Source of the DNA: a bacterium
GTDB taxonomy: Bacteria > Patescibacteriota > Saccharimonadia > CAILAD01 > GCA-016700035
Assembly (NCBI GenBank): GCA_016700035.1
Contig: CP064998.1
Coordinates: forward strand, 791,551-855,550
Reading direction: 5' to 3'
DNA length: 64,000 nucleotides
Shown piece after piece: positions 45,877-64,000 of this stretch. A program made the translations under genes and the position numbers. Below the pieces are notes generated by a model. It worked only from the letters and a program-made list of their open reading frames with translations. It was not told the DNA's origin and did not search any database. Each line of letters starts with the position of its first letter. Position 1 is the stretch's first letter.

Positions 45877-47112
45877 CTAACCAACCCAGTAGCCATTAGA
45901 GAACATCGTGAGCATCGCACCGAGCCCAACTGCCGATAAGACAAAATACAATGTTCGCACCCACTCAGCTTGTTTATCCAACCACATCGCAATGAGGATA
46001 AAAACCGGGAATACCGCTAAAATGTATCGACTATCTGAAACAAAATTGCCGGTTAATACCAATGTTAGTGCGGTTAATCCGGAATATACCACTAAAGATA
46101 TTGGTAACTTCTTTCTCCAGCCAACCCAAGCACTCCACGCAATTGCTAGCCAAGCTATAAAAAAATGCAGCCTGGTAAATAGCTGACTGAACCAATCGTC
46201 CAACCAAGCCGTAGACCCCACGAGCCCGATCATGCCAGTTGTTTCTTTATATATGGTGCGAAAAATATTTGCCTCAAAGCCCATATAGGGCCAATACTTA
46301 TCATAGATACTTGCAAAGTAAACCCACGGATACACATTGGTTTTACTATAGAGCCACAACCAATACGTACCAGTTCCAGCAAGAGCTACCGGGATAGATA
46401 CAATCTGCCAATCAATCTTACGCCACGACCAATTTTTATCAGATAAATACTGCGCGGCAATAACTATGGCAAATATAATCCCCACACCTCGCGTACCGCC
46501 AGCTAATGCCGCCAGAATCCCAGAAGCCAAATATTTTTTGCGCAGCAATAGCAATAACGACCACGTAGCCAACGCAACAAAAACTGCTTCAGTATAGAAA
46601 GCAATAAAAAAATGTGCACTTGGAAAGGCCAGCCAGGCAAGTATGGTCAGGATTGCTACTTTACGCTTTCTAGTAACTTCCATTGTCAGTAAATACAAAC
46701 CTTGCGATGCAATAAGTAATGCTATGGCATTAATGAACTGAGCTGCTACTACTATGTTGATGCCAATTTTATGCAGTAGGAAAATTATCAAAGGAAATAC
46801 GGGGTAAAATACAGTATTAAAACTAGATAGGTCATAGCCTTTTTGAATAATAGCCAAATAACTTACCCCATCCCACTTAATAGCACCAATCAATCCAGTT
46901 ATAATGGGTGGATTATAGGTCGTATTCCCAGGTTGGTGAATTACAGATACAACAAAAAACCGTAAAATAACCATACTAATAATCCACACCAGCGGGATGA
47001 CTATGGCTGGATATTTTTTAATAAAAGTAGAAAGCTTACTGTTAATTTTTACTAGTTGTATTCTTAATCTTTTTAGCCTGGCCATTAAGATTATCCTTAT
47101 TTGACACAACAA
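45877..47112 (-). CDS. GT-C-fold polytopic membrane glycosyltransferase (PMT/ArnT-like), putative
   Basis: About 11 TM helices with aromatic-rich loops. The start is uncertain, with candidates at 47112, 47085 and 46974. It sits in the glycan locus. Confidence 0.45.
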   Translation of the reverse strand: MLCQIRIILMARLKRLRIQLVKINSKLSTFIKKYPAIVIPLVWIISMVILRFFVVSVIHQPGNTTYNPPIITGLIGAIKWDGVSYLAIIQKGYDLSSFNTVFYPVFPLIIFLLHKIGINIVVAAQFINAIALLIASQGLYLLTMEVTRKRKVAILTILAWLAFPSAHFFIAFYTEAVFVALATWSLLLLLRKKYLASGILAALAGGTRGVGIIFAIVIAAQYLSDKNWSWRKIDWQIVSIPVALAGTGTYWLWLYSKTNVYPWVYFASIYDKYWPYMGFEANIFRTIYKETTGMIGLVGSTAWLDDWFSQLFTRLHFFIAWLAIAWSAWVGWRKKLPISLVVYSGLTALTLVLTGNFVSDSRYILAVFPVFILIAMWLDKQAEWVRTLYFVLSAVGLGAMLTMFSNGYWVG

Positions 47113-48421
47113 CCCCCATCAGCAGCCCAATCGCCACCCAAATATGCATGATGTAGAGCGTGGAAAAAGTTTGTGCTTGGATTAATTGTGAAAAGATATA
47201 AGTAAGCAATCCTGCCACTAAATAAGTATCGCGACTGTTTGGCCTACGTAAGTACATTATTGACTGTCGCACCAATAGAATAATCAATGTCAATAATAAA
47301 ATTAATCCCACAAGTCCAGTCTCTAGTAAGATCTCTAGTGGTAAATTATTGACTATTGCCCACCCACCTACGGCATTAGGCCCTTGAATATAGGGGCCAA
47401 ATTGCCCTGGTCCAATTCCAAACAGTAAAACATTCATGTCCGATGTAGACAGACGAATTGCCTTTAGGCGAAAACGACTCCTATCATCACCAGATCCTTC
47501 CACTCCAGAATTTGTAAGCTGTTGCACATAAGCGCCTGCAGCTTTCTTGCCTTCGGCGGGGCTATCACTTATTAATGGAGTGCGATTAAAGAGCTGGATG
47601 CAGGATAGTGCTAGTATAAATCCAATAGCAATAGCAAGCGCAACTCTTACCAATCTGCCCGATACAAGCTTTCTCCTGTAGATAGCAGTGCAAACAAAAG
47701 TTAAGATAAGTGCTCCAATTAAACCATAAATTGCCCCCCTCGATAGAGTGAGGCTTAAAGTGGCAATAAATAATGTTAAGACTACCCCACTATATCTGAT
47801 TATTTTTTTTCTATATAAAACTTCATTTATCAATAATAGTGTTGGTAACAACAAATATGAGCCAAAATATAACGGCTCTAGCCCTGTAGACTGTATACGC
47901 GCAAAGCCAAATACCCTCCAGCTATACCTTTCTGAAAGGCCAGTCCAAGAAGAGTTGAGCCCAAAAAAATCACCAAAATATTGATATATTCCAAATACAG
48001 AAGTTATGATTGCGGCAATATATAAAGTAATTATTACCTTTCTTCTAGATAATTCACCAATGTTTTTCCATAAATAAAAGACACTAATCCCCACACCAAT
48101 AGCAAATACCGTATACAGAACTACTTGAATAGCCCTGATTTGATTAATTGATATAGGTATTATTAGGCTAACCCATAATATAAATAAGCCTAATAATACT
48201 ATTTCAATGGGTAGCCAACCAGATTTCCTGGACTTAATAAGAATCCACAGTCCTCGCAAGATTAATAATCCACCAATAAATAAACTAGGTCTCAAAGTTA
48301 TAAAGGATACATCTATAGATGGTATTCGCTCAAAAGGTAGCACTAACACCATCCCCTGCAAAAGAGTGAGATCTGGATTGCTACGAATGTATTTTAAAAT
48401 GTTATGTATCTTTTCTCTCAT
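47042..48421 (-). CDS. O-antigen ligase/polymerase family membrane protein (Wzy_C-like)
   Basis: About 11 TM helices with a periplasmic-loop motif LSLTLSRGAIYGL. In the glycan locus. Confidence 0.55.
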   Translation of the reverse strand: MREKIHNILKYIRSNPDLTLLQGMVLVLPFERIPSIDVSFITLRPSLFIGGLLILRGLWILIKSRKSGWLPIEIVLLGLFILWVSLIIPISINQIRAIQVVLYTVFAIGVGISVFYLWKNIGELSRRKVIITLYIAAIITSVFGIYQYFGDFFGLNSSWTGLSERYSWRVFGFARIQSTGLEPLYFGSYLLLPTLLLINEVLYRKKIIRYSGVVLTLFIATLSLTLSRGAIYGLIGALILTFVCTAIYRRKLVSGRLVRVALAIAIGFILALSCIQLFNRTPLISDSPAEGKKAAGAYVQQLTNSGVEGSGDDRSRFRLKAIRLSTSDMNVLLFGIGPGQFGPYIQGPNAVGGWAIVNNLPLEILLETGLVGLILLLTLIILLVRQSIMYLRRPNSRDTYLVAGLLTYIFSQLIQAQTFSTLYIMHIWVAIGLLMGVVVSNKDNLNGQAKKIKNTTSKN

Positions 48422-62736: not shown

Positions 62737-62774
62737 ACTCTAGATTGTATCAAGATAAGGCGCCGTAAAGCTAC

Positions 62775-64000
62775 TTATGGACGATTAACCCTTATATCTA
62801 TAAACGTACCCGGGTCATTCATCATTGCACCACCCTCAACAATTGGCTGGAAGAATTCGCGGTATACACCCGGCCTGAGAACTTCAGCAGACCACAAGTT
62901 GAAGTTGTATTGAACAATCTGACCTGGCTGAGCTACTGCTTGATTTGCAGCTAGTGTTGTTCCATCTGCTTCATATACTGCCGCAAAACGGGTAGATGCA
63001 CGGTTCTGATCACGATTCCATAGTGTGCCAAGTAGACTATAGCGATTCACCGACCTTCCGGTAGACAAGACTACTGGCTTCGTATTATTTGCTACTGCAG
63101 AAGAACTATCATACCAAGGAACATTCCCAGTATTCTTGTATCGCAAGAAGCATGGTGCAGAGCTGTTATTGGCTACCATTGTTGGGTATGCGCACTGGCC
63201 AGCATATTGAGAGGTGTATGTAGGAGATTGTACCCTTATATCTATAAACGTACCCGGGTCATTCATCATTGCACCACCCTCAACAATTGGCTGGAAGAAT
63301 TCGCGGTATACACCCGGCCTGAGAACTTCAGCAGACCACAAGTTGAAGTTGTATTGAACAATCTGACCTGGCTGAGCTACTGCTTGATTTGCAGCTAGTG
63401 TTGTTCCATCTGCTTCATATACTGCCGCAAAACGGGTAGATGCACGGTTCTGATCACGATTCCATAGTGTGCCAAGTAGACTATAGCGATTCACCGACCT
63501 TCCGGTAGACAAGACTACTGGCTTCGTATTATTTGCTACTGCAGAAGAACTATCATACCAAGGAACATTCCCAGTATTCTTGTATCGCAAGAAGCATGGT
63601 GCAGAGCTGTTATTGGCTACCATTGTTGGGTATGCGCACTGGCCAGCATATTGAGAGGTGTATGTAGGCTTCTCTACAGTTATATCCAAATATGTACCAG
63701 GGTTATTCATCGTAGACCAACCCTCAACAATTGGCTGGAAGAATTCGCGGTACACACCCTCTGGAGTAGTGCTATCAACGCCAAAATTAATATTAAATTG
63801 AACAATTTGACCAGATGTAGCTTTATGCTGATTGGCTGCCGGGGTCACACCATCCGCTTCATACACTGCTGCAAAAGTACCAGATGGACGATTTCGATCT
63901 CCACCCCAAGGGTAGCCCACAGAGCTACTGCGATTAAGGGGATTGGAAGTAGCTAAATGTACCGGCTTAGTGCCTACCGGTGCGGTAGATAGTCCAACAT
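62775..64000 (-). CDS. Repeat-containing probable surface protein, 5'-partial (continues beyond window end)
   Basis: The frame is open to the edge. It has two perfect 148-aa repeats plus a diverged third repeat, and a further copy beginning at the edge. The C-terminus is FIDIRVNRP. Confidence 0.6.
   Translation of the reverse strand, partial: VGLSTAPVGTKPVHLATSNPLNRSSSVGYPWGGDRNRPSGTFAAVYEADGVTPAANQHKATSGQIVQFNINFGVDSTTPEGVYREFFQPIVEGWSTMNNPGTYLDITVEKPTYTSQYAGQCAYPTMVANNSSAPCFLRYKNTGNVPWYDSSSAVANNTKPVVLSTGRSVNRYSLLGTLWNRDQNRASTRFAAVYEADGTTLAANQAVAQPGQIVQYNFNLWSAEVLRPGVYREFFQPIVEGGAMMNDPGTFIDIRVQSPTYTSQYAGQCAYPTMVANNSSAPCFLRYKNTGNVPWYDSSSAVANNTKPVVLSTGRSVNRYSLLGTLWNRDQNRASTRFAAVYEADGTTLAANQAVAQPGQIVQYNFNLWSAEVLRPGVYREFFQPIVEGGAMMNDPGTFIDIRVNRP
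62789..63676 (-). repeat. Two perfect tandem copies of a 444-bp (148-codon) unit inside the repeat-protein gene
   Basis: cccttatatctataaacgtacccgggtcattc begins at 62789 and again at 63233. The intervening sequence is identical on inspection. Confidence 0.85.

Follow-up and report, generated by a model that had tools for sequence, protein, structure and literature searches.

The question raised by the locus at 45877–64000 of the 64,000-nucleotide stretch of DNA analyzed here (hereinafter, the window) is where the surface glycan that it is predicted to build is finally attached. An earlier note on this DNA had read the locus as a candidate protein O-glycosylation system, in which the repeat protein encoded at its edge was the obvious acceptor. 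According to the present analysis, which we hold with moderate confidence, the product is a wall- or membrane-anchored glycopolymer, and the neighboring protein, a putative hydrolase with FW repeats, is an enzyme associated with this polymer and not the target of glycosylation. This reading is preferred because of the architecture of the hydrolase, because its repeats recur in other enzymes, and because the tests specific to O-oligosaccharyltransferases (O-OTases) failed.

Gene Content of the Locus and Its Source Organism

The locus occupies approximately 18 kb and consists of tightly packed genes on the minus strand with one plus-strand gene, gmd, between them, whereas the earlier note had placed all of the genes on one strand. 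The genes named in that note were recovered from the list of open reading frames (ORFs) and by Pfam and NCBIfam searches, as follows (GT, glycosyltransferase; SAM, S-adenosylmethionine; SDR, short-chain dehydrogenase/reductase; NBD, nucleotide-binding domain):

62775–64000, minus strand: repeat protein, C-terminal 407 codons of a putative hydrolase, apparently secreted and GH73-like, that carries three repeats of the FW (NBR1) type; the ORF continues past the window
61777–62736, minus strand: fcl-like GDP-L-fucose synthase (SDR epimerase/reductase; PF01370, 188 bits; NF047922, 308 bits, under the 500-bit cut-off)
60936–61760, minus strand: Wzm, ABC-2 permease (PF01061, 76.5 bits)
59659–60939, minus strand: Wzt (PF00005, 79.8 bits, and PF14524 (Wzt_C), 30.6 bits), with the NBD at approximately 60154–60939 and the variable Wzt_C at 59659–60153
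58982–59677, minus strand: SAM methyltransferase (Methyltransf_11, Pfam)
58269–58970, minus strand: DUF268 protein, putatively methyltransferase-like (PF03269, 46.9 bits)
57534–58250, minus strand: SAM methyltransferase (Methyltransf_11/23, Pfam)
56701–57537, minus strand: GT11 fucosyltransferase (PF01531, 136.6 bits vs. a cut-off of 23.9)
55763–56716, minus strand: GT2 glycosyltransferase (PF00535, 128 bits)
53881–55779, minus strand: two-domain GT2 + GT4 fusion of 632 aa (PF00535, 129 bits; PF00534, 104 bits)
52634–53819, minus strand: GT4 (Pfam), split into two overlapping ORFs by a frameshift; intact in relatives, with 391–394 aa
51424–52383, plus strand: gmd, GDP-mannose 4,6-dehydratase (TIGR01472, 538 bits vs. 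a cut-off of 415; PF16363, 495 bits)
50217–51377, minus strand: GT4 of the conserved core (Pfam)
49250–50224, minus strand: GT2 of the conserved core (Pfam)
48402–49250, minus strand: GT2 of the conserved core (Pfam)
47042–48421, minus strand: Wzy_C/O-antigen-ligase-family membrane protein (PF04932, 40.1 bits vs. a cut-off of 31.7)
45877–47085, minus strand: GT-C-type polytopic membrane glycosyltransferase, PIG-V-like (assigned via an ortholog matching PF04188); the gene overlaps the 3' end of the Wzy_C gene
53820–60270, region without strand: strain-variable cassette comprising the Wzt C-terminal domain, three methyltransferase-type genes, GT11, GT2, and the GT2-GT4 fusion

The seven GT2/GT4 domains (three GT2 proteins, two single GT4 proteins, and the GT2 + GT4 fusion), the Wzm/Wzt transporter with Wzt_C, the gmd, fcl-like, and GT11 genes, and the Wzy_C and GT-C proteins were thereby confirmed, and the profile searches for Wzy_C, Wzt_C, and GT11 that the earlier note had suggested as a check all gave scores above the respective cut-offs. 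Of the three SAM methyltransferases that it had listed, two matched methyltransferase models, and the third was the DUF268 protein; these genes lie not upstream of wzm/wzt, as had been stated, but downstream in the direction of transcription.

By its gene content, the locus is of the ABC-transporter-dependent (Wzm/Wzt) glycan export type. The Wzt NBD was clearly related to that of Aquifex aeolicus Wzt (E = 1e-65), whereas the Wzt_C match was marginal (30.6 bits against the 30.4-bit cut-off, E = 4e-7), with scores of 36 bits in the L011 ortholog and 21 bits in the L010 ortholog. No Wzx flippase was found in the locus with Pfam, and the sole MOP-family gene of the window was MurJ (283 bits), located approximately 20 kb from the locus. 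As for the fucose branch, the exact product of the second GDP-fucose step is less certain, the fcl-like match being below its cut-off, and an alpha-1,2 linkage would be expected of the GT11 enzyme from its family only. The H-antigen-like host mimicry considered in the earlier note was rejected, since nothing points to an animal host and the linkage is read from the GT11 family alone.

The pathway had also been called complete. It is incomplete as encoded here, since the searches of the locus and of the 64-kb window as a whole yielded neither an initiating phosphoglycosyl transferase (MraY/WecA-type PF00953 or Bac_transf PF02397) nor ManB/ManC. Bac_transf genes were present near the related loci L013 and L095, and in this genome the gene for the initiating enzyme presumably lies outside the window. 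None of the GT2/GT4 proteins received a sugar-specific assignment from NCBIfam, and the conserved GT4s matched glycolipid-anchor synthases weakly, under the cut-off.

The source genome is a metagenome-assembled genome (MAG) of Saccharibacteria (Patescibacteria, Candidate Phyla Radiation (CPR)) of approximately 0.9 Mb. The Wzy_C, Wzt, and GT-C proteins of the window were identical to the NCBI entries QQS26897, QQS26910, and QQS26896, respectively, and the closest protein relatives came from Candidatus Saccharibacteria/Saccharimonadia and other Patescibacteria. The rest of the 64-kb window contained genes of the type IV pilus, ComEC, DnaK/DnaJ/GrpE, MurJ, FtsH, and a sortase, and no lipopolysaccharide genes were found in it. 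Patescibacteria are monoderm. Given these relatives and this gene content, the premise of the earlier note that there is no lipid A-core to ligate to is sound, and lipid A was rejected as the ligation acceptor.

The Wzy_C Protein and Its GT-C Partner

The nature of the acceptor depends primarily on the class of the Wzy_C protein, which the earlier note had regarded as a ligase-like O-OTase. An AlphaFold2 model of this protein built with 37 homologs had a pLDDT of 89 and a pTM of 0.90. In the Foldseek comparison, WaaL (7TPG) was the sole significant solved structure (E = 3.4e-6, TM-score 0.52–0.58), with FtsW next and weak, and the model displayed a WaaL-like fold of 12 transmembrane segments with an extracytoplasmic helical domain. 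The closest solved structure is thus that of a lipid-directed ligase, which speaks against protein O-glycosylation; it is a weak point of this argument that no O-OTase structure was scored in the search. Sequence searches of the PDB with the Wzy_C protein, both as a single sequence and as a profile, returned nothing.

Two further tests also bear on this assignment. The PglL_A model (PF15864), which was made to tell PglL O-OTases from WaaL (PMC3643930), did not match the protein, and PF04932 was the only match at E ≤ 0.01. In addition, residues R215, R288, and H338 of Escherichia coli WaaL are conserved in PglL as R224, R298, and H349 (PMC3643930), whereas in the protein studied, the H-N-x9-G-xx-G motif keeps its spacing and reads N-N, with Asn358 and Asn359 invariant in all 37 sequences. 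The hhalign alignment, weak as a whole (E = 0.33) and exact in the register of the motif, placed N358-N359 opposite H338-N339 of E. coli K-12 WaaL. In the form IVNNxxxExxxExGxxG, the motif contained NN in 73 of the 80 genome loci; of 133 additional cluster representatives, 119 had NN, and HN occurred in neither set. The substitution extends across a large clade: the profile search retrieved at least 600 cluster representatives (50% identity clusters) at E ≤ 1e-30, and the 216 loci found in GTDB species genomes were nearly all labelled Patescibacteria. According to the model and the alignments, the Wzy_C protein is WaaL-like in fold and fails one catalytic feature common to WaaL and PglL. No test places it among the O-OTases: PglL_A was absent, WaaL was the only significant structure, and the histidine shared by WaaL and PglL was replaced by Asn throughout the clade.

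The gene of the GT-C protein overlaps that of the Wzy_C protein. The window protein had no Pfam match of its own, whereas its 61%-identical ortholog matched PF04188 (43 bits vs. a cut-off of 22.4) and PMT_2 (E = 0.003). Approximately 9–10 hydrophobic segments were predicted, with the sequence 'KWDGVSY' in the first loop after the first transmembrane segment, and the PDB sequence search gave nothing. The overlapping pair was kept in close relatives; among 80 more distant loci, the search was sensitive enough to detect it in only 5. A GtrB-like polyprenyl-phosphate-sugar synthase that might serve the GT-C protein was not found, as no GT2 protein had two C-terminal transmembrane segments; single weak hydrophobic windows occurred only in GT2_324 and in the GT2-GT4 fusion.

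The Repeat Protein and Its Small Partner

A 444-nt tandem repeat was located at 62788–63876 (2.2–2.4 copies, 91–96% matches). The part of the repeat protein encoded in the window comprises a portion of repeat 1 followed by two 148-residue repeats with 98.9% identical DNA, while the N-terminal domain lies outside the window and was examined in orthologs. The full-length orthologs P0122 and P0123 (698–699 aa, 83–85% identical) consist of a signal peptide, an N-terminal domain of approximately 225 residues, and three repeats, which are beta-sandwiches of the NBR1/FW type. The N-terminal domain had no sequence-level match in Pfam, the PDB, or PHROGs (except for two single-member PHROGs matches with E of 0.05–0.1), and the PDB sequence search with the repeat protein likewise gave nothing. 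The best structural match of the hydrolase part was LytB, and the domain contains an invariant Glu within INPQV..TLQKEQSL, which we take to resemble the catalytic-Glu helix of lysozyme-like enzymes.

Other proteins of Saccharibacteria carry homologous repeats in fusion with Peptidase_S8, Amidase_2, CHAP, cohesin, and DUF5648 domains. Neither an LPXTG motif, nor an SLH or S-layer domain, nor a Ser/Ala/Pro-rich linker between domains was detected in the repeat protein. Because of this domain content, the reuse of the repeats, and the lack of S-layer features and Ser/Ala/Pro-rich linkers, the protein looks like a secreted GH73-like wall hydrolase with a reusable targeting module and not like an S-layer protein. 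The same features, an enzyme not of the S-layer type and repeats shared with amidase, CHAP, and S8 protease proteins as a targeting module would be, argue against this protein as the acceptor of a protein-linked glycan, and the word "obvious" in the earlier note is not justified.

The association of the repeat protein with surface glycan genes, on the other hand, was upheld. Its orthologs (26–88% identity) adjoined a surface-glycan cluster in 7/7 related genomes examined, and the cluster without an adjacent surface protein, which the earlier note had named as a result that would count against it, was not seen among them. The ortholog adjoined fcl-wzm-wzt in L010, L011, and L012, a methyltransferase-epimerase-acyltransferase-wzm-wzt cluster in L096, a wzm-wzt cluster in the opposite orientation in L097, and other genes (glycosyltransferase, GtrA, and Bac_transf) in L013 and L095. 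Since this adjacency was kept in all seven genomes, the repeat protein is likely to be functionally linked to the glycan locus.

In the same seven loci, a small gene of 174–210 codons overlapped, abutted, or lay just upstream of the repeat-protein gene; in the genome of the window, it would fall past position 64000. The encoded protein has a transmembrane anchor, a Q/S/T/E/P-rich linker of 40–80 residues, and a beta domain of approximately 90 residues, in which two Cys are usually present. This protein may regulate or anchor the hydrolase or, alternatively, serve as a glycosylation acceptor. The genes were located as follows:

L010, 9409–9981: small partner gene
L011, 9487–10011: small partner gene
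L012, 4701–5234: small partner gene
L013, 9459–10004: small partner gene
L095, 7369–8001: small partner gene
L096, 7420–8001: small partner gene
L097, 7270–7821: small partner gene

It should also be mentioned that repeats 2 and 3 of the window share 98.9% of their DNA sequence, as against 82% protein identity between the corresponding repeats in P0122, and that both resemble repeat 2 of P0122. In P0125, a 99%-identical variant, one of the repeats is missing, and the short-read contig L001 (6.3 kb), the sole exact match to fcl, breaks exactly at the repeats. This suggests recent gene conversion, copy-number variation, or collapse of the repeats during assembly at 62788–63759.

Conserved Flanks and an Exchangeable Cassette

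The comparison with related loci revealed conserved flanks around an exchangeable, serotype-like center. One flank is formed by fcl, wzm, and the Wzt NBD, and the other by GT4, gmd, GT4, GT2, GT2, Wzy_C, and GT-C. This structure follows from flank identity combined with cassette divergence in L002/L003, L010, and L006–L009. The metagenome contigs L002 and L003 encode a Wzy_C protein identical to that of the window and are 99.84% identical in DNA to 45001–53818, while upstream of the GT4 start codon at 53819, which is the breakpoint, they are unrelated to the window and contain instead GT4, GT11, an Acyl_transf_3 acyltransferase, and two GT2 genes. The more distant L010 showed approximately 79% DNA identity to 60268–63968 only, a stretch that contains the repeat-protein gene along with fcl, wzm, and the NBD part of wzt; at the protein level, Wzm, Fcl, and the Wzt NBD shared 94%, 91%, and 87% identity, respectively, whereas the C-terminal domains of Wzt had no similarity. 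Among the relatives in general, the Wzt NBD was 74–87% identical, and the C-terminal domain was either unrelated or 32% identical. The GC content of the cassette (approximately 53820–60270) was 36–38%, compared with about 44% elsewhere in the window.

A second lineage, represented by L006/L007/L009 and L008, had an identical Wzy_C protein and different cassettes. The cassettes of L008 and L002 were 89% identical in DNA, whereas the conserved flank (measured in L006) was approximately 79% identical, which suggests lateral exchange of cassettes between Saccharibacteria species. The cassette type with Acyl_transf_3, GT2, GT2, and GT4 was thus observed in two lineages (L002 and L008).

The two Methyltransf_11 proteins and the DUF268 protein share the cassette with the Wzt C-terminal domain, and this domain, as part of the cassette, presumably recognizes a strain-specific chain end. 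Such content is what would be expected if the domain reads a strain-specific terminus, as in the E. coli O8/O9a model; the methyltransferase-type proteins may cap this end or methylate internal residues. Since the cassettes can be swapped, strains that are nearly identical are expected to differ in the fucosylated or methylated glycans that they display, and variability of this kind is the pattern expected under selection by phages, hosts, or immune systems.

The frameshift in the GT4 gene at 52634–53819 is due to one extra C (CCCC vs. CCC) near 53264 relative to the 99.8%-identical L002/L003; such a difference could reflect a pseudogene, phase variation at this site, or an error of assembly.

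Proposed Pathway

In the envelope-anchored glycopolymer that we favor, a lipid-linked glycan would first be built in the cytoplasm by the core GT4, GT2, and GT2 and the GT4 that is frameshifted here, and then extended and decorated by the enzymes of the cassette, namely, the GT2-GT4 fusion, GT2, GT11 fed by Gmd/Fcl, and two or three methyltransferase-type proteins. Export would be carried out by Wzm/Wzt, with the cassette-borne Wzt_C reading the strain-specific chain end, after which the WaaL-fold Wzy_C enzyme would move the chain to its final acceptor outside the membrane, and the translationally coupled GT-C enzyme would decorate the chain or help in its attachment. The preferred acceptor is a cell-envelope anchor, which could be a glycolipid of the membrane, by analogy with TacL of pneumococci, or a different component of the wall. 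The GH73-like FW hydrolase and its small membrane-anchored partner would then act as a glycan-associated wall enzyme, its repeats docking on the polymer. In Firmicutes, choline-binding, SLH, and CWB2 modules dock hydrolases on wall polymers, and by analogy with them, the FW repeats may bind the glycan.

Several observations weigh against this pathway. No acceptor was identified by any of the tests, and the search of the locus and the window brought up neither a glycolipid-anchor synthase nor an LCP ligase. A lipid carrier has to be assumed, because no initiating enzyme is present. The replacement of His by Asn may mean that the chemistry differs from that of WaaL. The FW repeats are 83–88% conserved between strains and close species with different cassettes; therefore, they would have to bind either a part of the polymer that is itself conserved or another ligand, for example, peptidoglycan or a host wall. 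In addition, the layout of the Geobacillus S-layer glycosylation cluster is common to the locus (PMC2943079), and gene order in Saccharibacteria is generally conserved, which weakens arguments based on gene neighborhood.

Alternative Explanations

Protein O-glycosylation is the alternative that survives best, and it is considered possible, if doubtful. Under this explanation, the Wzy_C protein is an O-OTase of the WsaB/PglL kind that transfers the ABC-exported, capped glycan onto surface proteins, with the FW-repeat protein, its small partner, an S-layer protein, or type IV pilins as candidate acceptors. The gene order parallels that of the Geobacillus stearothermophilus slg cluster, in which the S-layer gene, wzm, wzt, the methyltransferase-containing WsaE, and the Wzy_C protein WsaB are found (PMC2943079); lipid A is absent from this monoderm; a gene for a secreted protein lies beside the glycan locus in 7/7 genomes; and the window also contains genes of the type IV pilus. 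Flexible stretches of low complexity serve as sites for PglL-type enzymes (PMC3643930), and the small coupled protein consists in part of a transmembrane anchor and a polar low-complexity linker of 40–80 residues. If O-glycosylation does take place, this linker-rich partner is no less suitable than the repeat protein as a candidate acceptor. These points are opposed by the results described above for PglL_A, for the replaced histidine, for the structural match to WaaL, and for the domain content and repeat reuse of the neighboring hydrolase.

A rather unlikely proposal is that Patescibacteria possess their own branch of the O-antigen-ligase superfamily (at least 600 clusters, with His uniformly replaced by Asn), which, in Saccharibacteria, together with the GT-C enzyme and the pair formed by the GH73-FW3 hydrolase and the small protein, would constitute a lineage-specific glycoconjugation system. 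If so, this would be either general protein O-glycosylation in a monoderm member of the CPR or a serotype-variable glycan ligated onto lipids scavenged from the host; in either form, it is the variable cassette that would determine how hosts and phages recognize the cell.

It is quite improbable that the gene order has no functional meaning, with the GH73-FW protein serving as a lysin or adhesin directed at the wall of the host bacterium of this epibiont and the glycan being an independent capsule or exopolysaccharide (EPS). Wall-degrading and polysaccharide-binding surface proteins of Patescibacteria have been proposed to target host envelopes (PMC10633639, PMC11665869), the glycan genes of Southlakia are described only as EPS machinery (PMC10633639), and the FW repeats are conserved despite the varying glycan cassette. 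However, the adjacency persists when the type or strand of the cluster changes (L013, L095, and L097), which would be less likely for merely inherited order, and the ligase-family and GT-C enzymes point to an attached product and not a free one.

The reading of the Wzy_C protein as a Wzy-type polymerase or as part of a second pathway, in which the core (GT4, GT2, GT2, Wzy_C, and GT-C) makes a separate polymer, is highly improbable: Pfam Wzy_C includes both polymerases and ligases, the oppositely oriented gmd separates the core from the cassette, and in many Patescibacteria loci Wzy_C follows GT4/GT2 with no Wzm/Wzt within the 4-kb flanks, but the locus has no Wzx flippase, ABC-dependent pathways need a final transferase and not a polymerase, WaaL is the best structural match, and the core and fcl-wzm-wzt stay together in the relatives examined.

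Significance

Saccharibacteria, like other Patescibacteria, live attached to bacterial hosts, and the surface chemistry of these organisms is nearly undescribed. The search of the literature on Saccharibacteria for an O-antigen ligase or S-layer glycosylation gave nothing relevant, and only one genetic study was found, in which such genes are called 'EPS machinery' and have fitness effects (PMC10633639). The type of pathway is known and the individual families are ordinary. Meanwhile, no description was found in the literature searched of an O-antigen-like cassette locus in Saccharibacteria, of a ligase clade extending across Patescibacteria in which Asn replaces the canonical His, or of a GH73-FW3 hydrolase that, together with its small partner, is conserved beside such a locus. 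A large uncharacterized ligase clade without the canonical catalytic His poses a concrete biochemical question, and the consistent link between the hydrolase and the locus provides a testable hypothesis on the ligands of bacterial FW domains.

Other Features of the Window

In the promoter and terminator scan, sites were no more numerous than in shuffled sequence, and the Rfam search of the window detected tRNAs only. Three tRNA-Met (CAT) genes lie within 5.4 kb (34785–34861, 35776–35851, and 40096–40171), and a tRNA-Lys gene is located at 11795. Other observations were as follows:

12784–16008, minus strand: three RimK-like ATP-grasp genes in a row, the middle one fused to a putative Zn-protease domain (PF05618)
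23815–24531, plus strand: separate CHAP-domain protein
32110–34041, minus strand: sortase gene directly downstream of a gene for a CBM_4_9 and polysaccharide deacetylase protein
41013–42248, minus strand: 411-aa protein with a weak bactofilin match, orthologs of which contain DUF8173; the gene adjoins a divergent LexA gene (42305–42937)

Comparison with Known Systems

The ABC-dependent O-polysaccharide systems of the E. coli O8/O9a and Klebsiella type combine Wzm and a Wzt with a carbohydrate-binding C-terminal domain, a terminal methyl or phosphomethyl cap, and ligation by WaaL. The locus studied resembles them in Wzm, the Wzt_C-bearing Wzt, methyltransferases beside the transporter, multidomain glycosyltransferases, and a transferase of predicted WaaL fold, as well as in being a low-GC variable locus in which the Wzt C-terminal domain varies together with the modifying enzymes. 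In contrast to these systems, it belongs to a monoderm without lipid A-core, has no WbdD-like kinase or coiled-coil terminator and no WecA in the locus, carries Asn at the position of WaaL His338, and has a GT-C enzyme coupled to the ligase.

S-layer or surface-protein glycosylation had been named in the earlier note as the Gram-positive precedent; this precedent is real (WsaB), but a second one, TacL, had been overlooked. The slg cluster of G. stearothermophilus NRS 2004/3a comprises sgsE, wzm, wzt, wsaE (2-O-methyltransferase and rhamnosyltransferases), and wsaB (Wzy_C O-OTase) (PMC2943079). Common to both are a monoderm organism, a secreted-protein gene directly upstream, the placement of genes for methyltransferases and glycosyltransferases after wzm/wzt, a Wzy_C enzyme encoded within the cluster, ORFs that overlap, and a low GC content. 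The locus differs from slg in that the upstream gene encodes not an S-layer protein but a putative GH73-like FW hydrolase, there is no WbaP-type initiator, the sugar is predicted to be fucose and not rhamnose, a GT-C partner is present, and the ligase belongs to a clade without the His; moreover, the system is known here from genes alone and not from a glycoprotein.

The second precedent, TacL, belongs to the Wzy_C family and is implicated as the pneumococcal lipoteichoic acid ligase, which transfers the chain onto a membrane glycolipid (PMC5727136), and hydrolases of Streptococcus pneumoniae, including LytB, dock on the teichoic acid polymer via repeats (PMC6456293). In both cases, a Wzy_C-family enzyme occurs in a monoderm, and TacL acts where a polymer linked to undecaprenyl diphosphate reaches a membrane anchor. 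The pneumococcal system differs in its TacF flippase, choline-binding repeats, and phosphocholine teichoic acid, in place of which Wzm/Wzt and FW domains are found here.

Finally, the PglL enzymes of Neisseria and Acinetobacter are likewise of the Wzy_C family and use lipid-linked glycans, and the nearby candidate acceptor gene and the partner with a low-complexity linker would be in keeping with such a system. Unlike in PglL, however, PglL_A is absent here, the equivalent of His349 is Asn, and the gene lies inside a glycan biosynthesis locus; embedding of this kind argues for a WaaL-type over a PglL-type enzyme (PMC3643930).

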